Positions 22,809 through 41,957 of a DNA stretch of 64,000 nt are shown here, one piece after another (within the stretch, counting starts at the first letter, position 1; each line of letters begins with the position of its first letter). A program made the translations under genes and the position numbers. The notes below the pieces were generated by a model that saw only the letters and a program-made list of their open reading frames with translations, was not told the DNA's origin and did no database searches. The DNA is from a virus. Location: the IMG/VR virus record IMGVR_UViG_3300034060_000702, positions 18,461-82,460 of that record, one strand, 5' to 3'.

Positions 22809-22855
22809 AAATATATAATATAGTAATTTATTATCAAAAATACAAATTATATATT

Positions 22856-22888
22856 AAAAACAAACCCCGGATCTCTCCAGGGTTCATT
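22856..22888 (-). terminator. Intrinsic terminator after the fibre block
   Basis: Minus strand GAACCCTGGA-GAGA-TCCGGGGTTT followed by a T run. Confidence 0.75.
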
Positions 22889-22925
22889 CTAGTCAGCCAC
22901 ATTAAACCAACCTCTCTGTGACATA
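22856..22925 (-). ncRNA. Candidate 3'UTR-derived antisense small RNA
   Basis: GTCACA/TGTGGC stem displaying GAGAGGTTGGTTTAA, then TGACTAG, then the terminator; complementary to the leaders at 38549-38574 and 41833-41853. Confidence 0.45.
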
Positions 22926-22927
22926 CT

Positions 22928-24094
22928 TTAGAATTTTATTAAGTATCTCATTGACACACCTTTTTGTCTATTATCAGTAGATACAGTAGCTGTACCTGCT
23001 GCAGTTACAACAGTAATTTGTGGTTGTCCAACAACTACAGGACTAATATTATTATTACCTACAAGAAGACCGGTATTAGTAGTATCGCAACCATAGGGTA
23101 TTGCATCAATTAAATTTGGAACTGCAAAAGCTAAAACATTTACTGCTGTATCATATATGTTACCTATTACTGCAAATAGTTTTGGATAAGAAGCTTTTAA
23201 TTTATAAGAACCATCACATAACAACCAACCTTCTGGAAGTACACCATTAGGGAAACCAGCCCAAGAAATAACTGTACCAACAGGTACTAATCCTACACCT
23301 GCGCCAACTTCTTCACCAGGAGTCGGAATGTTTGCAGGTAATGCATCTAAACCAGCAAGAACATAAGACACTACCACTTCATCAGTTGCAGTTACTTGAG
23401 AACCATTACCAGCTAAAGGAGAAACTGTAAATATAAAATAAGTTGGAAACTCAACATAATATGTAACCAATGCTGCTACAAACTTACTAGGATCATTGCT
23501 ATTTGAAATTTGCAATATAGTTCTAAGTTTAATAGCGGCTAACCATCCACCAGCTGTTCCTGAAGGAGCAGTAACATTTGTTCCATAACCAAGCAAACAA
23601 GTCTTACTTATGATTATTGTACTAGTTAATAAAAATGTAGCATCAAGACTTACTGTACCTTGTACAGTACCAGCACCTCTTTTGTATATTAAACTGTTTG
23701 CTCCAGGATTTCCTTGTAAACCATTAGTACCTGGAATACCAGAAGGTCCTGCCATACCTTGTGGTCCTGCAGGTAATCCAATATTCATATTGTAATTTGG
23801 GGATGTTCCTGTTATTGTAACAGTACCTGAAGAACCAGGAGCAAGTGTTGTTACACCACCAATAGCAAGATTAGGTGCAGGTCCAGTAGCTCCCATAGGA
23901 CCTGTTAATCCTGGATTACCTTTTGGTCCAGCAATACCTGTAGGACCAACTGCTCCTGTAGGTCCAGGTAATCCGCTTGCACTTCCTGATGGTCCAGCGG
24001 GTCCAGCTGGTCCTTGAAATCCACGTGGTCCTCTTGCAACAGCTGGAGCTGCGCAAGAACCACCACATGAACTTTGATTACATTTTACACACAT
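22928..24094 (-). CDS. Collagen-like tail fibre protein with tail-collar domain
   Basis: Cys-rich N-terminus, G-X-Y repeats, C-terminal PVGTVISWAG...PEGWLLCDG...YPKLFAVIG collar motif. Confidence 0.85.
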   Translation of the reverse strand: MCVKCNQSSCGGSCAAPAVARGPRGFQGPAGPAGPSGSASGLPGPTGAVGPTGIAGPKGNPGLTGPMGATGPAPNLAIGGVTTLAPGSSGTVTITGTSPNYNMNIGLPAGPQGMAGPSGIPGTNGLQGNPGANSLIYKRGAGTVQGTVSLDATFLLTSTIIISKTCLLGYGTNVTAPSGTAGGWLAAIKLRTILQISNSNDPSKFVAALVTYYVEFPTYFIFTVSPLAGNGSQVTATDEVVVSYVLAGLDALPANIPTPGEEVGAGVGLVPVGTVISWAGFPNGVLPEGWLLCDGSYKLKASYPKLFAVIGNIYDTAVNVLAFAVPNLIDAIPYGCDTTNTGLLVGNNNISPVVVGQPQITVVTAAGTATVSTDNRQKGVSMRYLIKF

Positions 24095-24104
24095 AATAAA
24101 TTAT

Positions 24105-27100
24105 TTAAGGACAAGTTAAATTTATACTCAAAGCATTCAATGCTTGAACAACTTTATTTTTATAAAAAATTGCAGTTTGTGCGGCAGGTACTTCTGTATC
24201 TAAATTAAAAATACCTTGAGAATTTTCTAAAGATAAATTTGAATTTGCTGTATAAACACCAGTACTTCCAAATGTTGCTAAAGCTAAATCTCTAAAGTCA
24301 TCAAAAGGAAAACCTAAAACTGTAGTTTTTATTTGAAATAAAGTTCCTTTAATTTGATAATCTTGAGCAGAAGCAGTAATTAAATTATTTTTAGTTTGAA
24401 CAATATCTGCAGAATAATCTGGTGCTATTGCATTATTATTAAAAGGAGGTGCTTGAACTGCAGGTGAACCTGTAGCACCAGGTGCATTATATGGAGTTGA
24501 CTCATCTTGGAAAACTAAATTTATAACTAAACCTGGTTCTAAATCTGGGTTTCTTCCATAGTTTCTAAGAGTTCCTAAACACTTAATAAATCTTTCATAA
24601 TAAGGTTCACCTGTTAAACCACCCATGTCAAAGAATTTTACTTTTTCATCATATAACACAGGATCATTATCATAAATTTGAAGCAAACAAAGTTTTAAAG
24701 TACTGGTTCTCATTTCATTTAACGCTGTTTCAGAACTACTCATAGAACCAGAGTTATCAAACCAAATATTTATTTCAGTAGACCTATTTATTTGCGGAGC
24801 CTCTACAGTATTGCAATCAGCACATGGTTCTTTAAGAACACACACTGGAGAACCATCACAAAAACTTACTTGAGAACCATCTGGACAAGTTAATTGATTT
24901 ACACCATCCTGAATTGGAATTGCTTTTCCTTTCATACTTTCAGTACTAAAAATTATGAAAGGTGCTAACTTAGCTGCATCATCAGTAGTATGATCAGGAG
25001 CAGATGGTATTGTAGTTCCAGGTGCATAAATAAATTCTTCTAAAAATTTAGTTTCTGCATCTATTGTAGGATCATTTGCTATGTTCATATCATATATTTC
25101 AAAACCTAATGAAACAGCAGCTCCAGTATTAAGACCTATCATTTTTATTATATGATCTCCAGCCGGTAATACAAAAGGTATTATACTCCAAACATTAAAA
25201 TTAAATGTATAATTTGCTTCAAATAATGCATGAAATGGACCAGTTCCATCAAGTTGTATATAAGCTCTTGAATTATTATCTCCTGAAAAACCAATATGAT
25301 AAACTTTTTGAATACCAATAGTTAAACATTTTGTAAATTCCATATTAAAATCAGAATTTTCAAGGTCGCCTATTTGATTTGGATTACCTACAGTAGGCAG
25401 AATTAATGCAGTTGGACCACTCCATTTTGTAGGTTCTAAATCAGGTCTTATATTATAAGGAGCATTTGTAGCTGCAGGAATACTTTGAGTAGCTGTATAT
25501 TTAATATAAGAGTCTGTTATAATATCATAAACTAAAACTTTTGTTCCATTGGAATAATTTTTTTTCTTATTCCAAACTTTATAAGCCCATCTAGCAATAC
25601 CTACTGTATTTAATCTATTATACCATACATTACCGGGAGTTGCAAAATTAACAGTAGATGTTGTTTGCCATGCTGTAATATATGTATTCCAAGTATTAAG
25701 TAAAAGATTTAGATTTGTTCCAACAGTTGTAGCAGGTGTACCTGTTACAACTCTAAATTGATAATTATTATCAAGAGGCTGCTGATAAAAAAATGTATTT
25801 ATAGCAAAACTTTGAGTTGGATATAAACGCATTCCAGTACCTCCATATGTACCAGGTAAATTACAACCTGGAGATACCACAGTCATTTGTCCATCAAATT
25901 CAGGAGCTACACTGCGAAAACATTTTTGTAAAGGAATGTTCGGAGTATATCCTGGAGAACAACAACAACTAGGTTCTTCAATTATTAAATCTGAACATTC
26001 CACTACAGTAATTTTTTCACAAGTTGGAAAGCCATTAATACTTGTAAATGTGTAACCTGCTGGACAATCAAATGAAGCTGACACAGTTTCATTTGGTTCA
26101 TAAACTGGATACTGTAATGGAGGAGTTGCAATAAACCTTTTAGTTGACCAAATTATATAATTATTTAAACCTGGCACACCTTCTTTGGTTAATAAGGAAC
26201 CCGTATCAGCTTTACCAAATTTTTGTTTAAAACTTTCAATAGATATATCATAAATTTCTGCACCAAACATATCATCGGTTGCACCACCTGCATATCCCCA
26301 AAACCAAAGTTGATGATTTCCTGCAGGTAATGCAATAGAAAAAGTATGCCAATAATCACACTGACCAGTGTTGTTTTGATTTATTTCAAACATAGTGGTA
26401 GCCTGTTGTTGTATTTGATCATAATAATCTAACCTGCATCCATGTTTTCCAGCCATTCCAATAATAAATGTTTTAGCTGTAGTGCAAAGCAAAGTAGTTT
26501 TAAATAATGTATCCATTGTTCTACCTTGAGGCCAAAGACCTACAGAATTAAGCCTGTTATAAAAAGCAAATGTAGGATTCCCACCCCAAACTTTATTTTT
26601 TATTCCTTTGTATCCAGCATAATACATTAAACTATTATTAGGAGAATTTCCATAATCTGTAATATTGCTTTCAAGATTAGCAGTATTTACACTTAACCCT
26701 TGACCTGGAATAAGCATTGAAGTATAAAAAGATTCTGTATCCCAAAAGATTAATCCTTTTTGTCCTAAATCAATATTTATAGGAGCTTGTGCTAAATCTT
26801 CATTTTGACATTCACCTTCACAAATAGTATTTTGATAACTTCTTTTAGTACATCTTTGTAAAGTTAAATCATAAAAATAACCAGCAGCTTCATCACAATA
26901 GCAAACACATTTAATTGGTTTCCATGTTGGAAAGTTTGGACTATTTGAAGGTACACCGTTATAAGTTCCATCATGATAATACAAATCTCTATTGTAAGGA
27001 TCTAATAAGATCCATTTATTTGCTGGTTTTCCAGAAAGGTCTATTGCATTATCTCTATAATAGATGTGATGCCAACAAGGATCAATCCAATTATGTCCAT

Positions 27101-27122
27101 CATAAACTTTGTAATCACTCAT
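24105..27122 (-). CDS. Putative adhesin/tail protein: two tandem Cys-flanked beta modules plus a C-terminal vWA-like domain
   Basis: Duplicated YNRLN(S/T)VG...LPAG(N/D)H...G(A/F)EIYD motifs; INIWFDNSGSMS matches the MIDAS DxSxS motif. Confidence 0.65.
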   Translation of the reverse strand: MSDYKVYDGHNWIDPCWHHIYYRDNAIDLSGKPANKWILLDPYNRDLYYHDGTYNGVPSNSPNFPTWKPIKCVCYCDEAAGYFYDLTLQRCTKRSYQNTICEGECQNEDLAQAPINIDLGQKGLIFWDTESFYTSMLIPGQGLSVNTANLESNITDYGNSPNNSLMYYAGYKGIKNKVWGGNPTFAFYNRLNSVGLWPQGRTMDTLFKTTLLCTTAKTFIIGMAGKHGCRLDYYDQIQQQATTMFEINQNNTGQCDYWHTFSIALPAGNHQLWFWGYAGGATDDMFGAEIYDISIESFKQKFGKADTGSLLTKEGVPGLNNYIIWSTKRFIATPPLQYPVYEPNETVSASFDCPAGYTFTSINGFPTCEKITVVECSDLIIEEPSCCCSPGYTPNIPLQKCFRSVAPEFDGQMTVVSPGCNLPGTYGGTGMRLYPTQSFAINTFFYQQPLDNNYQFRVVTGTPATTVGTNLNLLLNTWNTYITAWQTTSTVNFATPGNVWYNRLNTVGIARWAYKVWNKKKNYSNGTKVLVYDIITDSYIKYTATQSIPAATNAPYNIRPDLEPTKWSGPTALILPTVGNPNQIGDLENSDFNMEFTKCLTIGIQKVYHIGFSGDNNSRAYIQLDGTGPFHALFEANYTFNFNVWSIIPFVLPAGDHIIKMIGLNTGAAVSLGFEIYDMNIANDPTIDAETKFLEEFIYAPGTTIPSAPDHTTDDAAKLAPFIIFSTESMKGKAIPIQDGVNQLTCPDGSQVSFCDGSPVCVLKEPCADCNTVEAPQINRSTEINIWFDNSGSMSSSETALNEMRTSTLKLCLLQIYDNDPVLYDEKVKFFDMGGLTGEPYYERFIKCLGTLRNYGRNPDLEPGLVINLVFQDESTPYNAPGATGSPAVQAPPFNNNAIAPDYSADIVQTKNNLITASAQDYQIKGTLFQIKTTVLGFPFDDFRDLALATFGSTGVYTANSNLSLENSQGIFNLDTEVPAAQTAIFYKNKVVQALNALSINLTCP

Positions 27123-27127
27123 AAAAA

Positions 27128-27793
27128 TTAATCTTTAATCCAAATATCACCAGCTCTTAATCTATTTGCATTATATGAACCCGGAGGATTTAGAATAGTT
27201 GTGTCTACAAAGTTAACAGTAAATCCTGGAACACCAGCATAAGTAGCTTGATAAACTGGCTCGGTTGGTTCACCATTTGCACCACCAGCAACAAATTGAC
27301 TTGTTACTCCACCTACAAATACTGCAACCCCTCTACCATCTAAACCATTACAACCATTGCTAATATTAGCAGATGATATTTTACCATCAGTAAGTCCATT
27401 ACGATGGGTAACAATTATACCACCACATTTAAAACTAAGATCATTTGGAGTTGGTAATGTAACATCAACATAATCACCAGGATTACCCGCATCACCTGCA
27501 GGACCTTTTTCACCAGGTTCTCCTTTTGGTCCATTTAAACCATCAACACCATTGATACCATTTGCTCCATCAGCACCGGCTGGACCTTGTACTCCAGGAG
27601 GTCCTAATGGTCCAGTTATAGCAAGTCCTTGTGGTCCAGGTGAACCAGTTAATCCAGAGTTACCAGGAGGTCCTTGAGGGCCTGTTTCACCCATATCTCC
27701 TTTATCTCCTTGAATACCTTTCTCTCCTTGATAACCTCTTGGACCTCTTATTCCTTTAGGAAGCTCTTCGCATGAATCTTTGCAATCACTCAT
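27128..27793 (-). CDS. Collagen-like fibre protein
   Basis: About 30 G-X-Y triplets; ends in RAGDIWI. Confidence 0.85.
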   Translation of the reverse strand: MSDCKDSCEELPKGIRGPRGYQGEKGIQGDKGDMGETGPQGPPGNSGLTGSPGPQGLAITGPLGPPGVQGPAGADGANGINGVDGLNGPKGEPGEKGPAGDAGNPGDYVDVTLPTPNDLSFKCGGIIVTHRNGLTDGKISSANISNGCNGLDGRGVAVFVGGVTSQFVAGGANGEPTEPVYQATYAGVPGFTVNFVDTTILNPPGSYNANRLRAGDIWIKD

Positions 27794-27813
27794 AGCATTA
27801 GTTTTTTATAAAG

Positions 27814-28407
27814 TTAATAACCAATTTTAATATTTGGTCTACGGGTATGTATATCTGCAACTGTATTTGGTAACAATGGATCATCCATATCTCCAGAATA
27901 AATTCCTTTATTTGGTTGAGTTGATCCATCTGAACCACCCGCTGTTGAACTCCAATCATTAGCATTGTTTTCCCAAATCAATATTAAATTTGAAGTTCCA
28001 TTGTAAACAAAGTTTATATCAAAATTAATTATCCACCATAGATTATTTGCATATGTACTATATGCAAAATTACTTTTAACATTAGTTAAATCAGTTATAG
28101 TCAAGTCTTGTAAACCAATTAAAGGAGTGCTGCCAAAAGAAGATTGTGCAACATGTCCAATTTTTAATGTTTGATTTGGTAAACTTGTAATTGAACCATA
28201 ACTTCTATTATAAAATGCAACAAAATTAATAGTTTTAGCAGCACCCATTTCTGCAGCAGTCCATATAAAAGCAGTTCTTGAGTATCTGTAATTATAATTA
28301 TTTGGAGCATAATATATTAGCGAAGTACCTGTACCAATTTGTAAAATTTGTCCTGTAACTGGAGGATCTGTACTTCTATGTCTTAATATTCCTAATTGTG
28401 TAATCAT
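27814..28407 (-). CDS. Putative receptor-binding/fibre tip protein with a Bacteroidota surface-protein-like beta domain
   Basis: YSRTAFIWTAAEM...INFVAF...W.IINFDINFVYNGTSNLILIW...RPNIKIG. Confidence 0.5.
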   Translation of the reverse strand: MITQLGILRHRSTDPPVTGQILQIGTGTSLIYYAPNNYNYRYSRTAFIWTAAEMGAAKTINFVAFYNRSYGSITSLPNQTLKIGHVAQSSFGSTPLIGLQDLTITDLTNVKSNFAYSTYANNLWWIINFDINFVYNGTSNLILIWENNANDWSSTAGGSDGSTQPNKGIYSGDMDDPLLPNTVADIHTRRPNIKIGY

Positions 28408-28409
28408 AA

Positions 28410-30059
28410 CTATACTTTTAAATCACCACCTACCATAAAGGCATTTGTACCAAGTCTTACTACAGTGCAAAATGAATATTGAGCTCTTAATCTTCTTTCA
28501 TTATTAGTAGATAAAATACTAAATTGTGTTCCAAGTACTGAAGGATTTCCAGTAATTGTTACTTCTCCTATACCTTGTCTTACAACAATCAATGACTGAC
28601 CTTCTTTAAGTATTTGAGCATCAGCATAAGCTGCAGCTAAATTGAGTGTAACATCTGAAGATGAATTTACATAAATTATTCTATTTCTATAACTCGAATT
28701 TATAAATGTAGATGTATTAACAGTAATACTTTCTGTAATACCAATTGGTTGCCAACTATAACTATATGCATCTGCAAAATAGTTATAATAATTTGCTGCC
28801 CAAAAATATACAGCATCTTTATCGGTATCATAAACTTGATAACCTACATCAGTATAAGCTAAAGTTAATGCATTTCTTTGTAGAGTAGTTAATCTTGGCA
28901 TTTCCCAAGGATTACTTAATTGTGCTCCTGGTAAAGGCCATACCCCAGAAGCTTTAGGACCATATAAAATATATGTAGCTGTATCTAAGTAAAAATCTCC
29001 ATTAGCTCCAAAAACATCATTTGGAGTTTCTCCAACAGGTAAAGCAGCACTTAGTATAGTTTTACCATTAGTACCATTTGTACCAGCAGTACCTGGTGCT
29101 CCATTTGCACCATCCATACCATTAAATCCTGGGAATCCTTGAGATCCAGTTGCTCCAGTTATACCTTGGATTCCTTGAGGACCAGTAGCACCAGTTGGAC
29201 CAGCAGGTCCAGTCAATCCAATAGGACCTTGAATACCAGTTGCACCAGTTGCTCCTGTAGCACCAGTGTTTCCTGTTAATCCTGTTGGACCAGTAGCACC
29301 TTGAGATCCCGCAGGACCAGTAGCACCTTGAGCACCTGGTAAACCTTGTGCACCAGTAGCTCCTGTTGCTCCACCTGTACTTAATAAAGCCCATTGTGTA
29401 CCATTGTTTGTTGGAACAACTCCAGTTACAGGACCATTGTAAACCCAATAAGAAGCTCCGTTATATAAAGCAGTATCATTAGTTACATATGTTGTACCAG
29501 CATTATAGACACCTTTCCATGTTAAACCTCCAGGAGAAACTCCAGGATTACCTTGAATACCTGTAGCACCAGTTGACCCTATTGGTCCTTGTAAACCTGT
29601 AGCACCTGTTAATCCAATTGGTCCAGTAAGTCCAGTATTTCCAGTAGGACCTGTTGGTCCAGTAGGTCCGGCAGGACCAACAGGTCCAGTTGCTCCAGCA
29701 GGCCCAGTAAGTCCAGTTGGTCCAGCAGAACCTGCGGTTCCAGTTGCACCTTTTATTGAAGTTCCGGATCCCCAAGCAGTTCCAACTTTTGGTCCATAAA
29801 TAATATTTGCAGCAGTATCAATATAAAAGTCACCAGCAACACCAATAAAACCAGCTGGAGCTATAGTTCCGTTTAATATTGTATTACCATCTGCTCCTGC
29901 AGAACCTACTGTAAATATTTCTTCATATCCAGTAGTTAAATACACATAGTATTTACTTTCGAAATAATAAATTACTTCCGGGGATCCTACAGCAGGAACT
30001 CCATCGGTATAAGATAATAGTTGTAAACTTTTAGTTTCAGTTAAAGTTGGTGTAGACAT
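28410..30059 (-). CDS. Collagen-like tail fibre protein
   Basis: Two collagen tracts; two copies of G.TIL...GDFY(I/L)DTA..I(I/L)YGPK; central [15 protein letters not shown] module; C-terminal fibre domain. Confidence 0.85.
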
Positions 30060-30069
30060 AATTATATTT

Positions 30070-31662
30070 TTAAGTAGTTACTGGAAATGATACTTCTGCA
30101 TCGCTTGCATTATAATAGGATATTTTATACGCGCCAAGTGAATTTTTATATATTTTACATGTATAACTAGCATAAACAAGAGTAGCAGCTGATAAATCAA
30201 TTGGTACAGCTAAAGTACCTGTGTATATGCAATCAAAGTTATTAAATCTAAATATTTTAACAGTACTAGGTGAAGTATTTACCCAAGCCATGGATAAACC
30301 TCTATTACTATCTGCAGCATAATTAAAAATACAATTAGAAATAGATAGTGAAAATACATTATTTGTAAATGCATTCAATATAGTGTTTGCACTAAAAGTT
30401 TGCATTTCATTATTTGTAAAATTTTGATTTGTAGTAATAGTATTTCCTGTAAAAGTATCAATTACATTATTAGCAAATAAGTTAGCTGTAATAGTGCTAG
30501 AACCTACACTATACATTGTATTATTTGTAAATGTTGCATCTATAGTACAATCTACAAATGTATATTTAATAGTATTAAATTGAAATGTTTTTTTAAAAAC
30601 ATTTCTATTCATTGTAGCAACAGTATTTCCAGTAACTTGTAAGCTATGTGTATTACCATAAGCACTATTAATTTTATTATTAATACAAGAAGATAAATAA
30701 GTATTATTACCAAATGTAAAACCAAAAGTATTATCATAGGTAGTACTTCTAAATACTACATTTGGTAAATCAAATGCAAAATATAATTTACTTTTTGCAA
30801 TAAAATTATTATAAACTTCAACTGTACCCAATTGATTAAATGTTTTGAATTCAAGAGAACCAAAACCTAAATCAAATACAGAACTATATACACCAGTCGA
30901 ATCTTTATATCTTTTAAACAATACTGTTCTATGATCATAGAATGTAGTATTTCCATACTCATCTTGTCTAAATGTAATTCTACCAGTAGTTGCTGTAGCT
31001 GTAATAGGTGTTGTATAATTTAACTCATACTTAATTATATCTTTTGTATATTCATTTTGAAAAGCAAATGGATTTAATTTAGTTGGTGTTATTGCTTGAA
31101 CATGTATTGGTTCAATAAGTGAAGTTACAACAACAGGTACAACTACAGCTTGTATATTAAGAATTGTAGTACCAGTATAATCAGGTTGTTCATATATTGT
31201 AGAAAAGTCTGTAATCTTATACCATTGTCCTGGAACAAATGTACCAGCACCCTGCATTGCAACCATTTCAGCATGTGTCTTATTAAGAAGACCGCCAGCT
31301 CCACCGGAACCACCGCCTCCTTGAGAAAGAGCATTACTAAAATAATCTATAACACTAATGAGTGATTCAGTCATTCCATCACCAACAGATAAAATCTCTA
31401 CACCTCCTGCACTTTTAGCTTCTTCAATGTGTGTATGTTCACAAAAATAATCTATGACTTTTTTTAAGCCTACAGATAAGTTATCGCCAGTTTCTAATAA
31501 TGGTTCATTTAAATGACAACCAGCCTCTAGTCCTGTATATATAACACAATCAGTTGATGTAACATCAACACATGGATTTGGATTAGGACAGTTAACTGTA
31601 GGAGCAGAGCATTCTACACATGATACAGTTGATTCGGTTTGACCGCAGCTTGGACAACTCAT
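30070..31662 (-). CDS. Tail spike/fibre protein with a beta-helix repeat region
   Basis: Cys-rich N-terminus; [10 protein letters not shown] and [12 protein letters not shown] motifs; Asn-rich (F.NN.I/F) repeats. Confidence 0.7.
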
Positions 31663-31667
31663 AATTT

Positions 31668-32333: not shown

Positions 32334-32336
32334 ATC

Positions 32337-32861: not shown

Positions 32862-32889
32862 AATATATAATATAATAAATTTTTGTCAA

Positions 32890-33519
32890 TTAAGGACAAC
32901 AAATTTCTGAATTATTTACTAAATCCATTTTAAGCAATTGATGATTAATAATGGTTTCCATTAAATCATCCATGCAACAAAATTTAATTCCCATTTTCTT
33001 TTCCATTGCTGATTTAAAAGTTAAGTCAGCAAATCTACACATAGTAGTTTCAACTTTAGTTTCATCTAATCCATTGTAATAAGAATCTAAAAATAACTTT
33101 TTAGAATCGATTTCATTTGTTGCAGGAACTGGAATATCTGGCATACATTCCTTACAAGTTTTTACACAAGTATATTCAAAGAAAAAATTTTCAAATGGAA
33201 TGTCATAAGTTTCCTCATTACAAATTTCCGCAGCTTCAACAAACTTAAAACAACCTGTAAGTTTACTTAGATTAATATCTGTAACAGATGAAACAACTAC
33301 CATTGCTAGATCATCAGGATGAATGTTATTACTCATCTTTCCTGTGAATACTAATCGCAATGGTAAATTGTTTATTTTACATGGAGTTGAATCGCAACAT
33401 TGCACTAGTGTATAGTATTCAATATTTGGTCCAGGACTTACACTATAAGAAGTAGCATAGTCTTCTAAATCAAAGTGTAAAAATCTTGGTCTAAACCCTA
33501 GTATAATGTCAAAGTTCAT
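32890..33519 (-). CDS. Cys-rich putative tail hub protein
   Basis: 209 aa; GIKFCC motif; synteny. Confidence 0.45.
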   Translation of the reverse strand: MNFDIILGFRPRFLHFDLEDYATSYSVSPGPNIEYYTLVQCCDSTPCKINNLPLRLVFTGKMSNNIHPDDLAMVVVSSVTDINLSKLTGCFKFVEAAEICNEETYDIPFENFFFEYTCVKTCKECMPDIPVPATNEIDSKKLFLDSYYNGLDETKVETTMCRFADLTFKSAMEKKMGIKFCCMDDLMETIINHQLLKMDLVNNSEICCP

Positions 33520-33521
33520 CT

Positions 33522-33650
33522 TTATTTTGGATTTTGTGAGTTATAAATATAAACACATTTAGAACACACTTGTGTTCCATTTAATGATACAACTGGATAA
33601 GAACCAGTACAGCTGCATGTTCCGCAGTTAGGACAAATTGTAGTAGCCAT
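33522..33650 (-). CDS. 42-aa Cys-rich (zinc-ribbon-like) protein, not in the ORF track
   Basis: MATTICPNCGTCSCTGSYPVVSLNGTQVCSKCVYIYNSQNPK exactly fills the gap between flanking genes. Confidence 0.7.
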   Translation of the reverse strand: MATTICPNCGTCSCTGSYPVVSLNGTQVCSKCVYIYNSQNPK

Positions 33651-33651
33651 C

Positions 33652-34218
33652 TTAATATAATTTACATGTAAAGTTATCTAATAATTTTTTAGCATAGTTA
33701 TACAAAAGCATACCTTCTTCAACATTTAAACAATACTCTACTTTTGCTTTAGCAGCATCAATGTATCCAGTGATTGTCATCAATGCATTGAATTTATCTT
33801 TTGTTTCTGGAATTGGTTCGCAAGCACTCAATTTAAGATCACACCAAGCAGACTGTAATTGTTTTTTAAGAGCAGTAACTCTTAAATGGTAATACTCAAC
33901 AAACAATCTATCATTTGGTGAGTTAGAATACTTAATTGTATAAACACCATCATTCAAAGTATCAAATTCAACATCACATGAGTCCATTTGTAATTGTAAG
34001 TCACATGCTGTTAAATTTAAGATAAATCCTTTTTGAATTGTAAGGGGAGCTGGTGATAAATCATTATAGGTAATCCAGTTACCAAATCCTGGAGCCATTA
34101 CTTGTACTGTAGGACAAGAGTAAGGCATTATATCACTATAGACACTTGTATCTTCTATTCGAAGAATACAGTCAGTCATAATATCTGGGATATTTAATCT
34201 TAAATTATTTATTGCCAT
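33652..34218 (-). CDS. Putative tail hub protein
   Basis: IEDTSVY...LNDGVYTIKYS..P beta domain plus a helical C-terminus; crAss synteny. Confidence 0.55.
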   Translation of the reverse strand: MAINNLRLNIPDIMTDCILRIEDTSVYSDIMPYSCPTVQVMAPGFGNWITYNDLSPAPLTIQKGFILNLTACDLQLQMDSCDVEFDTLNDGVYTIKYSNSPNDRLFVEYYHLRVTALKKQLQSAWCDLKLSACEPIPETKDKFNALMTITGYIDAAKAKVEYCLNVEEGMLLYNYAKKLLDNFTCKLY

Positions 34219-34232
34219 TTTTTCTTTAATTT

Positions 34233-34268
34233 AAAAAAGGGGAATAGAGAAAAACTCCATTCCCCTTT
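34233..34268 (-). terminator. Intrinsic terminator
   Basis: AAAGGGGAAT...ATTCCCCTTT stem with a T tail on the minus strand. Confidence 0.75.
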
Positions 34269-34291
34269 GAAGAGTAAATATACTACTTTTT

Positions 34292-35926
34292 TTAGATAGC
34301 TTTCGCTACAAATGCAGTGTGACCATAAGTTTCTAAAGAAACAGCTTGTCTAGCATTTGTCAACCAAGTATTCATGAATGTTTCAAATGCAGTTGCTGTA
34401 GCAGCAGGAACATAAATGTTCAATGCATATTGATCATTATCATAAACACCAGAAGGGTTGTTTGTTCTTGGAGTAGTATGCAAGATTACGTATCTTGTGA
34501 AAGATGCTTGTCTAATTGGTTTAAGAACACCACCATTAAGTGCAGTGATTGCCAAATACTGATCTCCTTGATTGATTTCTCTTAATCGGCTATCAGAATG
34601 GAATTGGTTTTGTAAGTATGATTCATCAAAGATAATATCACGCAATACACTTTCTCCAAAACCTTGACCTTGAAAACCTTTTGTTTCATCAGTAATACAT
34701 AATTTGCTGAACTCACATGGATTTCCAGTTAAGTCAGTCAATGATACATTAAGATTAACAATTTCTTTTTCAAAACCATCTTCAAGTTGGAATGAACAAT
34801 TACCAAATGAAGTTTCAACATAAGCACCAACTAAGCGGATACCAGCAACTTTACCAGCAACATAACCTGGAGATAAAGTAGCAGCAGTAGCACCTGCAAC
34901 ACCATAGTTTGACCATACATAAGCAGAACCAGCTTCAGCACCTACAGTTGTAAGAGGAGTGATGTAACCAGCAGCAACAGCTTCAGCAGCAGTAGCAAAC
35001 AATGGTTGTTGATATTGATTGTAAACGATAGGTCTAACAAAGTCTTTTACAATTGGATCATTGATGATTTGGTTAGCCCAATCAATCATTACCAAAGTTG
35101 AATCAACATTAACAACACCAGCAGTTGTACAACATCCTGTGTTAGCAGCATATGTTTTGTATGCTTTGTGGTTCAATAATTTCAAAATTGGAGCACCAGA
35201 CAATTCAACCGCTAAGTTGTATGTTTCGCCACACATGAAATCAAAAGAACAAACCGCAGGTTCAGTAATTGTAAGTGTTGGAGCAGTACCAACTGTAAAT
35301 CCAGCACCAACATTTGCAGGAACCGTTAAAACATTACCTGTAACATAATTTGCACCATTGTTGTTAATTTTTGCAGAAGTAACAACACCACCAGCAACAA
35401 CTAAGTCAACTGTTATTCCAGTACCAGCACCACCAGTAGTAGGTAAGTTAAGGAAAGTACCATTAGAAAGACCAACACCAGCAGTTGTAATTACAGCAGT
35501 AATTTCATTCAAATTTGTGTTACCAACATGAACAATTGCTTGTTCTGGAGCAGCAGCAGTCATTTTTACAAACTTGCTGATGTATCTTGGGTTAATCACT
35601 TTTGATTTGTTAGACTCATTGTAACCACCATGAAATGGTCCAATTTTATCTTTTGGTAAAATAGCTGAAGAAGCTAATACTAATGGAGCAGCAGCTACAA
35701 CTTCAGCACCACCTACAACAACTGATAAATAAGTATCCTTGTTAAAGAATCCAAATGTACCAACACCTAATGCATAAGGTGCAGCTGTTGAACTTAGGTA
35801 GCGAGAGTGAACTCCGGCTTCAGTTAAAAATCCTTCATTAACTGATTTTCTTACACCCGCAGATGTAGTTTGTGTTGCTTTTGTTCCTAAAAAGGACTTT
35901 CTAAAAGCACTGTTGAAATGACTCAT
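34292..35926 (-). CDS. Abundant structural protein, probable auxiliary capsid protein
   Basis: 544 aa, Ala/Gly/Thr-rich, with its own terminator; position after the MCP/ring genes; internal beta insert. Confidence 0.55.
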   Translation of the reverse strand: MSHFNSAFRKSFLGTKATQTTSAGVRKSVNEGFLTEAGVHSRYLSSTAAPYALGVGTFGFFNKDTYLSVVVGGAEVVAAAPLVLASSAILPKDKIGPFHGGYNESNKSKVINPRYISKFVKMTAAAPEQAIVHVGNTNLNEITAVITTAGVGLSNGTFLNLPTTGGAGTGITVDLVVAGGVVTSAKINNNGANYVTGNVLTVPANVGAGFTVGTAPTLTITEPAVCSFDFMCGETYNLAVELSGAPILKLLNHKAYKTYAANTGCCTTAGVVNVDSTLVMIDWANQIINDPIVKDFVRPIVYNQYQQPLFATAAEAVAAGYITPLTTVGAEAGSAYVWSNYGVAGATAATLSPGYVAGKVAGIRLVGAYVETSFGNCSFQLEDGFEKEIVNLNVSLTDLTGNPCEFSKLCITDETKGFQGQGFGESVLRDIIFDESYLQNQFHSDSRLREINQGDQYLAITALNGGVLKPIRQASFTRYVILHTTPRTNNPSGVYDNDQYALNIYVPAATATAFETFMNTWLTNARQAVSLETYGHTAFVAKAI

Positions 35927-36011
35927 TTTTCTTTTTTTTTAATTAAACACTAAAACACTAAGTATATATTATAAGGATAATTTTTTTAAATTCCTAATTT
36001 ATATAAACTTT

Positions 36012-36149
36012 TTAACATTTTTTCTTTGCAGAACCGCCCATAGCTTTTTTTGGAGCTGCTTTTGCTCCTTTAGCTGGAGCAGCTTTCTTCGCCCATGGTG
36101 GAACCCATGCTCCTTTTGCAGGTGCGGCTTTTTTCTTTGCTGTTGCCAT
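36012..36149 (-). CDS. 45-aa Lys/Ala/Pro-rich basic protein, not in the ORF track
   Basis: MATAKKKAAPAKGAWVPPWAKKAAPAKGAKAAPKKAMGGSAKKKC. Confidence 0.75.
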   Translation of the reverse strand: MATAKKKAAPAKGAWVPPWAKKAAPAKGAKAAPKKAMGGSAKKKC

Positions 36150-36175
36150 TATATTTGATTTTTAAAGGTTACTAT

Positions 36176-36880
36176 TTAAGTATTTGATTCTACACTATTA
36201 GAAGCAATTTGTTGAATGTTAATACTTTCAATATCACCTGCTAATATTTTAACAGCTTCATCAATAAATATTTCAACAATATCATCTTTAAATTCACACT
36301 CAACTTCAACTAATGAAATCAATCCGGTATATGGATTAGATACACCTTTTATTTCAATTCTTCTTGGTTGTTTATAATAAGTTAGTTTAGGTTCTACAAC
36401 ATCAAATTTAGAATCTGTATAGATCTTAATCTTATTTGCAGAAACAGTACAAAAAGTTTCAGCCCATTCAAAACTTGGTTTTTTATTGAAGTCAGATAAT
36501 AGTGTATCTACATCTGCTTCTTTTGCCAATACAACAACAAGCTTTCTAGGATCTTTGCAACAACCACTTGTAGCTTTTGCTGATATTCTTTTCCACTCGA
36601 AATAATCTTTAGGAAGAGCTTGTGAGATATAGTATTCCTCTTCTTTGCTCATTTTTACTAGAACTGTATCCAATAAGATTTGCAAGTCATCGATTCTTCT
36701 TTTGGAAGCCTCATCTCCTGTTTTAGAAATATTGAGGCCTTCTAAAGTTCTTCTACACCAAGCAACTGTTGCTTTGTTGAAAGCCTCAACAATTTGCCAG
36801 TCAGTAATGTTATCATAATCCTTACTGTCTAACTTGTTAATTCTTTGCTTAACTTTTATTTTGATAGTGCTATTATTCAT
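36176..36880 (-). CDS. Ring/head-tail connector protein
   Basis: INKLDS...AFNKA...KRRIDDL...LPKDY...LTYYKQP; conserved crAss ring gene position. Confidence 0.7.
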   Translation of the reverse strand: MNNSTIKIKVKQRINKLDSKDYDNITDWQIVEAFNKATVAWCRRTLEGLNISKTGDEASKRRIDDLQILLDTVLVKMSKEEEYYISQALPKDYFEWKRISAKATSGCCKDPRKLVVVLAKEADVDTLLSDFNKKPSFEWAETFCTVSANKIKIYTDSKFDVVEPKLTYYKQPRRIEIKGVSNPYTGLISLVEVECEFKDDIVEIFIDEAVKILAGDIESINIQQIASNSVESNT

Positions 36881-37008
36881 TATTTTTTATTTTTAGAAGC
36901 AGGTTTTTTCATATTGCGACCAATCATCATTCCTGCCTGAAAAGATTTTTTAACCTTTTCTGCACAGTCTGATTTTTTTGAACTTGTAGTAGTTTTTGTC
37001 TTTGCCAT
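36880..37008 (-). CDS. 42-aa basic protein, not in the ORF track
   Basis: MAKTKTTTSSKKSDCAEKVKKSFQAGMMIGRNMKKPASKNKK; TAATG overlaps at both ends. Confidence 0.7.
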   Translation of the reverse strand: MAKTKTTTSSKKSDCAEKVKKSFQAGMMIGRNMKKPASKNKK

Positions 37009-37295
37009 TACTTTTTCTTTTTATGTGTATTTGCAAAATTTCTTGCTGCTTCTTTACTACCAAATCCCCATGCTTTTAATGCAAGTTTCAATCTTGTAGG
37101 CTCACCATTTGATTTCTTTTCTGGACCAGCCATACCACCAAATCTAGCAGCAAAACTAACCCTTCTTGGATTAGTTCCTGATTTTACTGGAGCTTTAAGG
37201 TTAGAACCTTCTGCTTTCGCAGAGGCTCTACCTTTAGCATTTAATCCTCCATTGGGATTTTTTCCTTCTTTTCTTGTCCAAGCTGGAGTAGCCAT
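37008..37295 (-). CDS. Small basic phage protein (DUF6321-like)
   Basis: KNPNGGLNAKGRAS...NLKAPV...RRVSFAARFGGM...LALKAW. Confidence 0.7.
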   Translation of the reverse strand: MATPAWTRKEGKNPNGGLNAKGRASAKAEGSNLKAPVKSGTNPRRVSFAARFGGMAGPEKKSNGEPTRLKLALKAWGFGSKEAARNFANTHKKKK

Positions 37296-37296
37296 C

Positions 37297-37515
37297 TTAA
37301 CAACCTTTTTTCATTTTACCACCCATTGACATTTTAGGTTTTGCTTTACCACCCATTTTCATTTTAGGTGTTACTTTACCTCCAGCTTTATAAGCTTTTA
37401 CTTTACCACCATTACGCAATATTGTAGCAGGATTATTATCAAAATCATCTGCAGCAATTGTTTTAGTAGGTGTTGGTGCTGGTGCTTTTTTAACTGGTTT
37501 TTTAACTGTTGCCAT
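37297..37515 (-). CDS. 72-aa basic protein with four xxGGK repeats
   Basis: LRNGGK, YKAGGK, MKMGGK, MSMGGK. Confidence 0.7.
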   Translation of the reverse strand: MATVKKPVKKAPAPTPTKTIAADDFDNNPATILRNGGKVKAYKAGGKVTPKMKMGGKAKPKMSMGGKMKKGC

Positions 37516-37542
37516 GATATTTATTTTTAAAAGTTACATTGT

Positions 37543-38541
37543 TTATTTACTCCACAACCCATCAACATTTGCCATCAATCGATCTAATACTTCTTCATTA
37601 GAAGGATTCAACAAGTATTCAATCATATCGGAAACATTTCTTCCTAACATAATATTTGTACTTGCTTCATACATCATGCTATCTCCTTTAGGAATAATGT
37701 ATTTAAAGAAGCATGCATCCTTAACAACCGCTTTGATTTTCAAATAATCATTTGCTAATTCACTTGTTTCAATGAATAAGCGAGCAGTTCTTTTCTTATC
37801 TTGATCAACACCAAGACCATTGATATACTTATCTAAACCATCATAAATAATATCAGGTAATGTTCTGTTACTAAATTGAACCGAACTACCTTCAAGACAT
37901 TTGATCATGTAGAATAATTTTCTTGGGTTTTCAGTAGAAATGTTTTCTAAGATAGCCAATGCTTTATTTCTAAGTTTAACAGTTGACATTTGAGTAGAGA
38001 TTGTATCAATCTGTCTATCTAAATACCATTTCTTTTTGTTTCTTTTACACTCTTCTAAACTAGAAGCTACTAAAGAGAATCCACCAGCTTCTACAGCTTT
38101 GATAATAATCAAGTGATCAAGATTATTAATTGGATCTAAAACAATTTCATCATTGCTTAATCGAATATTTATCTTACTCCAGATTTCAGAATTATCTGGT
38201 TTAAACATTTCAACTTTAGTCCAAAAATCTTTATCTTCAACTTTTAAAGACATGTTAAAAGCTCTATCTCTTTCAAGTAAAACAATAGTTTCTCTGATTT
38301 CTTTAATAACAGCTTTCTGTTTTTCAGGATCACTAATTTTTTTGATGTCTGGAGCAAACTCATTTAATCCAGTAACATACCTTGTTTTACCATTTTGTTC
38401 GATTGCTGCAAGTGGTTCTACTTGCTGTGTTCCAGGAAATACAACATAACTGTATTTTTCTAATCCCATATTTTCAACTGTGTTATCACAGAATGGTTTA
38501 ATAGAAATTTTACCTGAATACTTAATTGGTTCTTTACTCAT
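37543..38541 (-). CDS. Conserved crAss-like head-module protein downstream of the MCP
   Basis: 332 aa; RYVTGLNEFAP, DFWTKV and LGRNVSDMIEYLLNPSNEE motifs; synteny. Confidence 0.65.
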   Translation of the reverse strand: MSKEPIKYSGKISIKPFCDNTVENMGLEKYSYVVFPGTQQVEPLAAIEQNGKTRYVTGLNEFAPDIKKISDPEKQKAVIKEIRETIVLLERDRAFNMSLKVEDKDFWTKVEMFKPDNSEIWSKINIRLSNDEIVLDPINNLDHLIIIKAVEAGGFSLVASSLEECKRNKKKWYLDRQIDTISTQMSTVKLRNKALAILENISTENPRKLFYMIKCLEGSSVQFSNRTLPDIIYDGLDKYINGLGVDQDKKRTARLFIETSELANDYLKIKAVVKDACFFKYIIPKGDSMMYEASTNIMLGRNVSDMIEYLLNPSNEEVLDRLMANVDGLWSK

Positions 38542-38591
38542 TTTATTTGTTGGTTTAAATTAATAACTGACTAGGTTATAAAGATAATAAT

Positions 38592-38617
38592 AAAAATAAC
38601 CTCCGAAGAGGTTATTT
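38592..38617 (-). terminator. Intrinsic terminator with cUUCGg loop
   Basis: Minus strand AATAACCTC-TTCG-GAGGTTATT followed by Ts. Confidence 0.8.
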
Positions 38618-38622
38618 ATTTT

Positions 38623-38844
38623 TTAAGAAAGTGCAGTTAACAATGCATTGAAGCGAGCTTCAAGTGCTATTATTCTGTCTGTAGTTGTTCCAGTTCCAGT
38701 TAATGCTGGAATAGCTTTTGCTAAAGTTGAGAATTGATCAACAATTTCATTTACATGAGCAACTCTTGCAAGCTGTGCTTCATTGTAATCAGCTCCTTTT
38801 AATACTTTATCAGGACTTTCTGTTTTGATTTTTGTAAGTGCCAT
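38623..38844 (-). CDS. Small virion protein (possible head fibre/decoration)
   Basis: 73 aa directly after the MCP; AQLARVAHVNEIV motif. Confidence 0.55.
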   Translation of the reverse strand: MALTKIKTESPDKVLKGADYNEAQLARVAHVNEIVDQFSTLAKAIPALTGTGTTTDRIIALEARFNALLTALS

Positions 38845-38856
38845 TTTATAAGATTT

Positions 38857-38890
38857 AAAAAAAGGAACCGGGGGTTGCCGGCTCCTTTTT
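38857..38890 (-). terminator. Terminator after the major capsid gene
   Basis: Minus strand GGAGCCGGC-AAC-CCCCGGTTCC (near-perfect stem) followed by T8. Confidence 0.8.
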
Positions 38891-38903
38891 GATTAATAAA
38901 AGA

Positions 38904-40520
38904 TTATAAAGAATAACCAGTGATTGGGTTTCTCATAACGATTTTCAACACTTTAGTTGGATCTTCTACTTTGATCGCAGGCATTGCTTGTGTCATGTAG
39001 ATTTGGTATCCATTGAAGTTACCTGAAGATTGGAACCCTTGAGTTCTTCCCATGTAATCCATAGAACCATTAACATATCTCCAAACAAGGTCTTTGTTCC
39101 AAGCACATTTCAACAATTTGATGTTATCATTACCATTTTCAGTAATATCAAATACGATGAATGAGTAAGAAGACAATCTATGACCATCAATGATTGGGTT
39201 CTCAATATCATTGTTTTGTAAGTTATCGAATGCTGGATTCAATACAAACTTGATATTAGCTAAGAAAGGAATCATGTACTCTGTGAAAGAGAATCCGAAT
39301 CCTAAATCCATTCCTTGACCTTTGATAGCATCAAGTTCTTTAGCGTTCATAACCAATCCAGAAGAGAAAGCTTCGCGCTTAATCGCTTCATTGATCATTC
39401 TCATACCACCCATACCTGTTTGAACAATCAATGATCTTTTAGAATCTGGTCCTTGGAAATCAACTTTACCATTGTAGAAGTTGAATAATTCAGAACGGAA
39501 GATGTCTAATTTGAAATCAGATTTGTTGTATACATGTTTGAAAGACAAATCTAATTGTTTCCAAAGTCCAACTGATAATCTTAAATCATCTGGCCCATCT
39601 TGTTTGATTCGACCACCTTTACCCCACATTAAGTAAGTTTCGATGTCATAAGCAATTTTGGACAAGTGAGCTGCTTCCAACTTAGTGATAAAAGTTCTAA
39701 CTAAGTTACCATTAGCTTGCGCTTTTTTGATATAGTCAGCACCTTTAGCTTTCACCATTCCTTCTAAAGAAGTAATTGATGGATCTAAACTTGTGTCAAA
39801 AGATTTCCATAACTCTGTTACAGGTACTTTTCCATCTGCATTCATACCACCTTTTTCCATCAACTTCACTTTAGAAGAGATTGAATAATGAACGTGTGCA
39901 TCTGCATTACCAACATAGTTGTAGAACTCTCTTGTTGTAGCAGTAGTTGTAAGATCAGAATATCTTTCACCATATTCACCTCTTGCAGAACCTACTCTGA
40001 AATAGAATGATTGTGATGTCAAGAATGCATTATCAAATACTGCATCTGAATCATTGTTTACTAACTGTACTGTATAGATAACTCCATCAGTTAAATCAAG
40101 AATTTCCTCATCAGTGATGAATAATTCTTTACCATTGAACTTATCATAAGTGATGATGTCACCATGACCAAAAGTTCTTTTGTTCAATTTGATTTTAAAT
40201 GGAGTTCCATCTAAACCTTTCATTGAGTTGTTAGAATCTAAATCCTCAACAATGAATGGAAGCTCTTCAGAAACTGGTGTGCTCCATTTGTATTCACCTC
40301 TTGGGTGTTGAACGTCAATAACATTCTTACCACCAAAAGAAGACATTTGATAAAGAGGCATCTCAACTTTTTTAACTTGAGCCCATAATTCTACTGGACC
40401 TAAATCATCTGGTTGTGCATCTTTCATCAAATTCATCATGTGATAAGAATCTACATGCGAACTTGCTGTGTAATGGTTATCCCGAAGGAACATTCCATTA
40501 TTTAAAACTGGTGTACTCAT
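38904..40520 (-). CDS. Major capsid protein (crAss-type HK97 fold)
   Basis: 538 aa following portal and scaffold; strong codon bias; LMWGKGG, GLWKQL and NPAFDN motifs. Confidence 0.85.
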   Translation of the reverse strand: MSTPVLNNGMFLRDNHYTASSHVDSYHMMNLMKDAQPDDLGPVELWAQVKKVEMPLYQMSSFGGKNVIDVQHPRGEYKWSTPVSEELPFIVEDLDSNNSMKGLDGTPFKIKLNKRTFGHGDIITYDKFNGKELFITDEEILDLTDGVIYTVQLVNNDSDAVFDNAFLTSQSFYFRVGSARGEYGERYSDLTTTATTREFYNYVGNADAHVHYSISSKVKLMEKGGMNADGKVPVTELWKSFDTSLDPSITSLEGMVKAKGADYIKKAQANGNLVRTFITKLEAAHLSKIAYDIETYLMWGKGGRIKQDGPDDLRLSVGLWKQLDLSFKHVYNKSDFKLDIFRSELFNFYNGKVDFQGPDSKRSLIVQTGMGGMRMINEAIKREAFSSGLVMNAKELDAIKGQGMDLGFGFSFTEYMIPFLANIKFVLNPAFDNLQNNDIENPIIDGHRLSSYSFIVFDITENGNDNIKLLKCAWNKDLVWRYVNGSMDYMGRTQGFQSSGNFNGYQIYMTQAMPAIKVEDPTKVLKIVMRNPITGYSL

Positions 40521-40551
40521 TTTTATTTATTTATTTATTGTTACTTGTTAA

Positions 40552-41826
40552 TTACCTACCAAAGATACTTTTTTGTGATCTTGTGATAGGTGGTTTTCTT
40601 GCACCTGCTGCTCCTCTATTATCAGTTTGTGAACCTGCACCGGATGAAGCTGTTCTTGAAGCTTCTTCTGTTTTCAACATTCTAACTGTTTTTGCATTTG
40701 CTTCTTTGTTACCAATTTGCTTTACAGAACTTCTGTAACCATCTGGATCACTCAATAACCATAATGCTTCTGCAACTAAACCTGGATTAGTTTTTTCTCC
40801 AAATTGGTGTTGTTCTAAATAGTATCCTAAAGCATTTGTCGGTCTTCCTTTTGAATCCTGATACTTTGATCTATCAATCAATCCATAATATAATGCATTT
40901 TGTACTTTCGGATTTAATGGAATACCATTTAATTCAGTTGTATTTAATGCATTGAAAACAGTTGTTTGATAAACTTTAGTTTGCTCTTGTTTTCTATGTT
41001 CTGCCTTTTTTTGATCATCCAACCTATGTTGAATTATCTCTGCTTGTTTAGCATCTAATTTCGGTTTGTATCTTAATGCATATTTCTCAAGATCACCTCT
41101 GTCTTTCAACATGTTTATTTCATCTTCAATTTCTTCCGCAGAATCAACATCTAATGAGTTTAACCATTGGCGAACAATAACCTCTTGATCATTTGGATTG
41201 TCAACATCCAAATCAAAAGTTTCTTGAGCTTTAGCTAACTGTCCAAAAACAGTTTTAAGGTCACTACCTCCATTTAAAGCATAACTTACTACAGCTTGAA
41301 CTTCTTCCGGCAATGTTTGAAACAATTCAACTGGTGCATTTTGTGCAGTTGTTGAAACTTGGTTTTCAATATTTGCAGTAATTAATTCTTTAAAATCATT
41401 TACTGTATAATCTGATAAAGGTTTGTCATCATCAAATGCCTGTAGGATGCCCTCTTCAATCAAACTTGTTGCTGCTTCAATCAAAGCATCTTTAGATAAA
41501 GAAGGGCGACCTCCTTTATTTTGAGATTTCTTTGCATCTGCATCATCATCTTCATTGTCAAGTTCATCATCTACTAATTTACTGATGTCATCATTTGTAA
41601 TAACAACATCTTTCAATGCATCTGGATTGTTCTTGTCAATAGTATCATCATCTAAAAATGATGTATCAACTTTACCTCCATCAAACATACTAGGTTTAAC
41701 TGGTTCATCTGTACCAATTATTGATTCTGTAACTCCTAGTAATTCATCTAAATTGTCAAAGTCTACTTCTTCTACATTTGCAGAAGCCGATGTTGCAGCC
41801 GCTGCTGCAGTTCCATTGTTTGTCAT
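40552..41826 (-). CDS. Acidic scaffold-like protein
   Basis: Very acidic, helical, with a basic C-terminal tail; lies between portal and MCP. Confidence 0.7.
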   Translation of the reverse strand: MTNNGTAAAAATSASANVEEVDFDNLDELLGVTESIIGTDEPVKPSMFDGGKVDTSFLDDDTIDKNNPDALKDVVITNDDISKLVDDELDNEDDDADAKKSQNKGGRPSLSKDALIEAATSLIEEGILQAFDDDKPLSDYTVNDFKELITANIENQVSTTAQNAPVELFQTLPEEVQAVVSYALNGGSDLKTVFGQLAKAQETFDLDVDNPNDQEVIVRQWLNSLDVDSAEEIEDEINMLKDRGDLEKYALRYKPKLDAKQAEIIQHRLDDQKKAEHRKQEQTKVYQTTVFNALNTTELNGIPLNPKVQNALYYGLIDRSKYQDSKGRPTNALGYYLEQHQFGEKTNPGLVAEALWLLSDPDGYRSSVKQIGNKEANAKTVRMLKTEEASRTASSGAGSQTDNRGAAGARKPPITRSQKSIFGR

Positions 41827-41957
41827 AACTGTGTTGGTTTTAATTACTGACTATATATAATATAAGCAAAAATATTCAATTTTAAATAATATATGTTTAA
41901 CTATTTTAAATGAACTAAATATTAAGCGGTAGTATATGGTTAAAACCTAACAAATTG

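Follow-up and report, generated by a model that had tools for sequence, protein, structure and literature searches.

We analysed a 64,000-nucleotide (nt) stretch of viral DNA (positions 18,461 to 82,460 of IMG/VR record IMGVR_UViG_3300034060_000702, hereafter the window) and found that the messenger RNA (mRNA) of its tail-fibre-like gene carries, in the 3' untranslated region (3'UTR), a hairpin whose loop is complementary to the leaders of genes in the head module. Sequence comparison among relatives identifies this hairpin as a real, strongly covarying structure of the RNA strand with an invariant loop. The reading that we favour, with a slight balance of probability on its side, is that the element is a 3'UTR base-pairing RNA acting on translation-initiation regions. 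The broader proposition, which we regard as evenly poised, is that a family of crAss-like freshwater phages would possess an RNA regulon of its own, in which the tail-fibre 3' end, by its loop seed and in some lineages also by a second box, pairs with three head-operon starts and sets head-to-tail ratios without Shine-Dalgarno sequences.

The gene upstream of the element (22928..24094, minus strand) encodes a collagen-repeat and tail-collar protein, tail-fibre-like by its matches to Pfam Collar and Collagen and to PHROG tail-fibre families. Its stop codon occupies 22928-22930, and the hairpin (22896..22922, minus strand), called from the fold, a covariance model and covariation in 35 relatives, begins 5 nt later. 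The stem consists of 6 base pairs (bp), one of them U-G, between a 5' arm GUCACA (22922-22917) and a 3' arm UGUGGC (22901-22896), and it closes a 15-nt loop (22916-22902) that reads GAGAG-GUUGGUUU-AA. Within the loop, the seed GUUGGUUU (anti-box 2; 22904..22911, minus strand) is complementary to the leader sequence AAACCAAC; similarly, CUGACUAG (anti-box 1; 22889..22896, minus strand), the single-stranded tail that links the hairpin to the terminator, is complementary to the leader sequence CUAGUCAG. The intrinsic terminator itself (22856..22888, minus strand) comprises a CCCUGGA-GAGA-UCCGGGG core with an A-tract/U-tract extension, followed by a U-run. Because its stem runs into the U-run, a simple terminator scan misses it, and the call rests on the fold.

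An original prediction, made from the bare sequence, had described a GTCACA/TGTGGC hairpin with one box in its loop and the other just before a terminator; consistent with this, the element folds at -30.8 kcal/mol (z = -5.5). With the covariance model, the hairpin scored 36.5 bits and was the one true hit that the window contained; below it, at 13-16 bits, came the complements of the leader boxes, the stem being present at the inverted copy only. Searched over the window, Rfam 15 gave no hit at the gathering score, the C4 antisense RNA family included, and at E <= 5 the best match, to an unrelated family, reached 18.5 bits against a threshold of 114. On the plus strand, antisense to the element, a 20-codon ORF (open reading frame) with a GTG start overlaps the variable gene end.

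Taken together, the two boxes form a bipartite motif, TAGTCAG-N(6-10)-AAACCAAC, which matches the window three times against 0.01 expected from 100 dinucleotide shuffles; no further copy was found anywhere in the 82.5-kb record. A pattern search placed the copies at 22890-22911 (plus strand), 38549-38573 (minus strand) and 41833-41853 (minus strand). Since every ORF across positions 1-57926 of the window's ORF map lies on the minus strand, both copies at head genes are sense and the copy at 22.9 kb is antisense, exactly the arrangement that had been predicted. The sense copies end 6 nt before the ATG of a gene for 424 amino acids (aa) and 7 nt before that of a 332-aa gene, and the inverted copy sits between the stop codon of the collagen/tail-collar gene and the following gene. 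Among the 46 minus-strand leaders of the window, the full motif occurs in only those of the 424-aa and 332-aa genes. A looser core, GTCAG-N(2-13)-ACCAAC, gave four matches in the window against 0.29 expected, the fourth being GTCAG-AAC-AAACCAAC at 49506-49521 (minus strand), which overlaps the ATG of an 88-aa ORF.

To examine conservation, relatives were gathered from IMG/VR, starting with a neighbouring 225-aa virion gene. The inverted copy, on whose persistence in related genomes the original prediction depended, was located at the same relative place in about 60 of them, with 45-66% identity in the 225-aa protein and 64-92% identity in the major capsid protein (MCP) where the latter was located. 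Each genome has a single copy, always on the gene-sense strand. No more than about 12 nt separate it from the stop codon before it, and in every relative a hairpin and T-run (terminator) directly follow. From the element to the 225-aa gene downstream the distance is about 0.7 or 1.9 kb, and the gene preceding the element varies from 112 to 525 aa. The covariance model (R1) under-detects relatives with stems unlike the GUCAC type, and several of its negatives proved positive on inspection.

The loop is kept as (U)UUGUUGGUUU(U), or as GGUUGGUUU in the window's clade, while the stem varies. GUUGGU was invariant in the loops of all 35 aligned relatives, and 51 unique hairpins displayed 38 distinct inner stems, among them GUCACA/UGUGAC, GUCACG/CGUGGC, GCUGUGA/UCGCAGC, GUUACAG/CUGUGAC, GGAGG/CCUCC, UCAGAAU/AUUCUGA and GUGGUGG/CUACUAC. 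In the 35-sequence alignment, 87.9% of cells pair and double-sided changes occur at 6 of 6 pairs, whereas slid stems pair at 17-56% and every shuffle fell below the observed covariation. The gene-sense strand folded better than its complement in 44 of the 51 hairpins (Wilcoxon p = 5e-8) owing to 39 G-U pairs, indicating a structure of the mRNA strand, as opposed to one of the DNA duplex or of an antisense transcript. In G032, G033, G035, G042 and G049 (loci L257-L260 and L283), an outer helix CAAC...GUUG extends the hairpin; its 5' strand (ACAACAA) resembles the leader box and could therefore mask part of the region in cis.

The first target site (41833..41853, minus strand) lies in the leader of the 424-aa gene (40552-41826), which occupies the scaffold position; box 1 spans 41847-41853 and box 2 spans 41833-41840, and the site is conserved and holds the top cofold rank. 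The second (38549..38574, minus strand), in the leader of the 332-aa gene (37543-38541), directly follows a terminator at 38594-38617. Its box 1 spans 38567-38574 and its box 2 spans 38549-38558, with 10 nt complementary to the loop; this site is likewise conserved and ranks first by duplex energy and second by cofolding. A candidate third site (49506..49523, minus strand), from the looser-core match, is the start of the 88-aa ORF (49257-49523), where the box 1 core GUCAG overlaps the AUG and AAACCAACC occupies +10 to +18. All three genes come first after a terminator and a promoter-like region.

In the relatives, (A)AACCAAC, often as AACCAACCAAC or in two copies, precedes two start codons, those of the scaffold-position gene and of a post-MCP gene of about 338 aa, in most cases by 3-7 nt. 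In four relatives whose protein is 36-42% identical, the 88-aa ORF opens with AUGUCAGAA-NNN-ACCAAC as it does in the window, and the start is the same in the distant genomes G009 and G065. ACC accounts for 3.9% of threonine codons and AAC for 21% of asparagine codons, so that the retention of the rare ACC-AAC pair at this start in 5 genomes points to selection on the nucleotides.

The labels given here to the 424-aa and 332-aa genes (scaffold, head gene) are positional. The 424-aa protein, encoded between portal and MCP, has a predicted disordered N-terminus of about 110 residues followed by long helices (predicted local distance difference test score, pLDDT, 63), a modelled shape that is compatible with, although not proof of, a scaffolding protein. 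The 332-aa protein, 41-64% identical across the clade, had no Pfam or PHROG family, and its Atlas matches were unnamed viral clusters only. Its AlphaFold2 model (pLDDT 86.6) found nothing in the PDB at E <= 0.001 with Foldseek; in a wider structure comparison, only the C-terminal 62 or so residues matched, to the RecA C-terminal domain (Z 9.6), with no whole-chain match.

Predicted pairing singled out the two leaders that had been named as partners: among 56 start regions, those of the 424-aa and 332-aa genes came first and second by accessibility-aware cofold gain (-12.8 and -12.1 kcal/mol), and by duplex energy the 332-aa leader came first and the other fourth. Across the relatives, the longest exact match to a genome's own loop averaged 8.5 nt for the scaffold leader, 8.7 nt for the post-MCP leader and 5.0 nt for the MCP leader, and loop-leader complementarity extended to 11-12 nt in many genomes. 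Many leaders can also form a weak predicted hairpin (-2 to -5 kcal/mol) in which box 1 pairs with the AUG and box 2 lies in the loop, and this fold is hardly commoner than in leaders that lack box 1.

A separate site, in the 3'UTR of a 93-aa gene (54540-54565, minus strand), carries AAAACCAACAACCUCUC, complementary to the loop seed and to the GAGAG part of the loop, with a 3-nt bulge, and is followed by a terminator-like hairpin at about 54512-54538 whose loop contains UUUAGUCAC. Among the predicted partners it ranked third by cofold gain and second by duplex energy. We considered it as a sense-motif "sponge" or decoy and dropped the candidate, the site being absent from the orthologous 3'UTR of G007 and the gene lacking findable relatives.

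Box 1 adds a second correspondence between the loci. Sixteen genomes have both CUGAC immediately 3' of the hairpin and GUCAG in the leader, 3 have CUGAC only, none has GUCAG only and 28 have neither (Fisher 6e-10); in two of the three CUGAC-only genomes, CUGAC is the stem's own 3' arm. The box 1 match is often longer, GUCAGUCA facing UGACUGAC. On the MCP tree, the state with both elements appears in at least four separate clades interleaved with clades that have neither. At the sequence level, this joint presence and absence ties the 3'UTR and leader loci together.

If the element does act by pairing, the last 70 nt or so of the tail-fibre mRNA would form an "anti-leader" module, made up of the hairpin, a short single-stranded tail and the intrinsic terminator. 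The active RNA species could be the full mRNA or a stable 3' fragment bounded by the two hairpins. Acting in trans, its loop seed GUUGGUUU would pair in vivo with (A)AACCAAC and, in the window's lineage, its tail CUGAC(UAG) with (CUA)GUCAG near the 5' end of the target mRNA. Three head-module units would be targeted, each where translation of its first gene begins (the scaffold-position gene, the 332-aa gene and the 88-aa ORF). With 8-10 bp paired at 4-14 nt from the AUG and a second duplex formed near the mRNA 5' end, loading of the 30S ribosomal subunit would most likely be blocked, and head-gene synthesis would fall as tail-gene transcripts accumulate. As to the sign of control, we lean modestly towards repression over activation. 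Under activation, the trans-acting RNA would open the weak pairing of box 1 with the AUG, a marginal and unspecific fold, or shield the 5' end. More speculatively, because the stop codon is so near the stem, a terminating ribosome might unfold the stem by melting its 5' arm, leaving the 3' arm and tail unpaired.

Several observations weigh against a pairing function. The loop and ACCAAC are near-invariant, and because seed and box are so constant there is little seed-target covariation, with loop variants only sometimes matched. The covariation proposed as a check on the original prediction was borne out in part: box 1 is gained and lost jointly, and loop variants are matched by the leaders in G007 (loop GUUGGUUG, leaders CCAACCAAC) and G013 (loop GUUGGUUA, leader UUAACCAAC), whereas the loops of G009, G056 and G059 (GUUGGUAU or GUUGGUAG) are uncompensated and retain a shorter match only. 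An apparent compensatory change in G011 (CUAAC/GUUAG) was left uncounted, as it probably overlaps a promoter TTTG box. In the clade of G040, G041 and G048 the hairpin is perfect and the leader boxes have decayed to 5-7 nt; these partial contigs contain no sense AAACCAAC near a start. G038 has a leader box, and no hairpin was found there; G036 has neither.

A further case is the nearest isolate by protein, Leptolyngbya phage Lbo-JY46 (PP438436.1), which has a cyanobacterial host and an MCP 26% identical to that of the window. It contains a candidate hairpin at about 91,590-91,650 (minus strand; locus L298, about 990-1050; 20.8 bits), with an AUAUAAA/UUUAUAU stem, the loop UUUGUUGGUUG and then a terminator, in a 410-nt intergenic gap. 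The candidate lies about 17 kb downstream of the MCP gene on the same strand, in the same relative position as in the window, and despite its presence Lbo-JY46 shows no leader-box enrichment. The base-pairing small RNA (sRNA) originally predicted has the conserved hairpin and the complementary leader boxes on its side, and the G040/G041/G048 clade and Lbo-JY46 against it.

Given the hairpins without leader boxes, as well as the loop-leader mismatches, the hairpin may have another function, additional or alternative, for instance with a protein partner. As a protein-binding or cis-acting element, it would offer its fixed loop to a phage or host protein that governs, for example, whether the tail-fibre mRNA terminates or reads through, how it is processed or how stable it is; the leader ACCAAC would then be an independent translation signal and the complementarity incidental. 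A fixed loop on a variable stem is typical of hairpins read by proteins, such as lambda boxB and the MS2 operator, and the freely varying stem seen here bears this signature as well. The hairpin also always adjoins the terminator and stop codon, and it persists where leader boxes have decayed (G040/41/48) and possibly in Lbo-JY46. On the other hand, two independently conserved 8-nt motifs would have to be exact complements of one another, which by composition we estimate at roughly 1e-3, and the second complementary box would have to come and go jointly at both loci in at least four clades. Moreover, the leader of the MCP, the most abundant protein, lacks ACCAAC, which indicates that ACCAAC is not a general signal for strong translation. 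We consider this explanation rather unlikely.

The original prediction had itself offered an alternative, an orientation-independent DNA site, under which all four copies represent one double-stranded site that a phage regulator binds in either orientation. The joint gain and loss of box 1 is expected equally of such a site, through a change in protein specificity, so this behaviour does not separate it from RNA pairing. On the opposite strand the inverted copy shows its boxes in unchanged order, and the leader copies lie downstream of promoter-like -7 boxes, in an operator-like position. Spacing, however, speaks against a rigid site. Leaders separate box 1 from box 2 by 2-13 nt and the 3'UTR copies by 4-11 nt, with different values even in a single genome (7, 13 and 8 nt in G002), a variability more easily reconciled with RNA pairing. 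Box 1 likewise stands anywhere from 0 to 23 nt from the -7-like promoter box, whereas an AUG is never more than about 20 nt from the motif, before or after it. In addition, the stem occurs at the inverted copy only and its G-U pairs work only in the gene-sense RNA, the inverted copy keeps its complementary orientation in every genome examined, and a site between stop codon and terminator has no obvious transcriptional role. The alternative is thus weakened by the spacer variation and the RNA-strand stem, and we hold it to be improbable, even though the joint behaviour of box 1 still fits it.

More improbable still is pairing within one molecule, in which late transcripts, initiated at the promoters of the head module and reading through to the terminator at 22.86 kb, would join their 5' leader to their own 3' end and protect both: the genes are all co-oriented, box 1 is probably near the mRNA 5' end, coming after TAnnTTTG-like boxes, and the element is located at a 3' end, but several strong terminators and distances of 15-27 kb intervene, and a single 3' end cannot belong to three different leaders at once. 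Sites of a Gin/Hin-type invertible segment were rejected, as the MCP and 225-aa genes have the same relative orientation in 17 of 17 genomes and the repeat spacers are variable.

The window is part of an IMG/VR virus record that is about 69% complete with 32.5% G+C. By ORF order and family matches, the terminase (44698-46920, minus strand) and portal (41958-44696, minus strand) are followed by the 424-aa gene, the MCP (38904-40520, minus strand), a 73-aa ORF, the 332-aa gene, the tail genes and genes for very large proteins, a layout that is crAss-like. The sole named match of crAss type to the MCP, a weak one, is to a gut crAss-type phage, and blastn against deposited phages found no close relative. 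Relatives are contained in lake-water metatranscriptomes. The eight RNA runs are lake or freshwater metatranscriptomes, represented by assembled contigs only and by a small word share, and carry neither ends nor strand; in the four runs compared, the pieces are 88-99% alike over the head genes and give no usable information on the element at 22.9 kb.

Leaders in the window lack a Shine-Dalgarno sequence, and TAnnTTTG-like boxes occur in several intergenic regions; we take both features to be compatible with a Bacteroidota host. A sigma-70-type promoter scan was uninformative on the window. Downstream of the TAnnTTTG-like boxes, an element TTATATTAT repeats at 22809-22860, 32862-32910 and 41854-41890 (minus strand). 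Only 6-7 nt separate its end from the ATG of the 163-aa and 174-aa genes (relatives read GTATATTAT-ATG), so that some late genes may have a very short leader or none. Two strong terminators, at 38845-38903 and 38594-38617 (minus strand), stand on either side of the 73-aa ORF that follows the MCP. The ATG of this ORF comes about 15 nt after the U-run of the MCP terminator, implying expression by read-through or from a promoter that overlaps the terminator.

To our knowledge, almost nothing is known of late-gene regulation in crAss-like and related environmental phages, and we found no regulatory RNA of crAss-like phages in Rfam 15 or the literature searched. If the pairing is real, the element would stand for an RNA regulon that is internal to the phage, extends across the family and has both its seed and its targets defined, and would demonstrate control at start sites where no Shine-Dalgarno sequence is available for masking. 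Being short, single-copy and easily modelled, the element may also help to mark where the tail-fibre module ends in metagenomic contigs of such phages.

Among known systems, the nearest in layout are bacterial base-pairing sRNAs derived from 3'UTRs, of the CpxQ, SroC, DapZ and MicL type. Like them, the element resides in the 3'UTR of a coding gene, after the stop codon, and shares that gene's intrinsic terminator, at which it ends; its short conserved seed is complementary to the initiation regions of several distant mRNAs, near their start codons. On bacterial sRNAs of this origin, see also PMC7398697 and PMC8625941. Unlike them, the present element is encoded by a virulent-type phage and would be aimed at the phage's own structural-module genes, has its seed in a hairpin loop with a second box besides, faces leaders without a Shine-Dalgarno sequence to mask, and is described here from sequence alone. 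In virulent Pseudomonas phages, candidate noncoding RNAs derived from UTRs have been reported from transcript ends and are conserved within genera, with no assigned function and no proposed targets (PMC10914365). The element is likewise UTR-derived; targets and comparative support come here from sequence, whereas transcript ends define the candidates there.

With the boxB hairpin of lambda nut sites and the MS2 operator, the element has in common a conserved loop on a covarying stem, and its adjacent terminator recalls the position of nut sites upstream of terminators. It differs from both in that its loop of 8-19 nt is not a GNRA-like pentaloop and has conserved exact complements at gene starts. 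No conserved linear (boxA-like) element was seen upstream of the hairpin in the relatives, where the stop codon abuts the stem; no protein is known to bind the hairpin, for which no candidate was searched.

In phages P1 and P7, the c4 antisense RNA (Rfam "C4") is processed from the 5' region of the very transcript that it targets, and serves immunity by controlling an antirepressor. As with c4, a phage RNA here presents two short boxes that could cover the ribosome-loading region of a non-overlapping target in the same genome. In contrast to c4, with which it has no sequence or structure match, the element follows a tail gene, at its 3' end, and the head genes that it may target lie 15-27 kb away. 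Outside every Rfam family, it is like a 3'UTR-derived sRNA in layout and like the two-box c4 RNA in logic.

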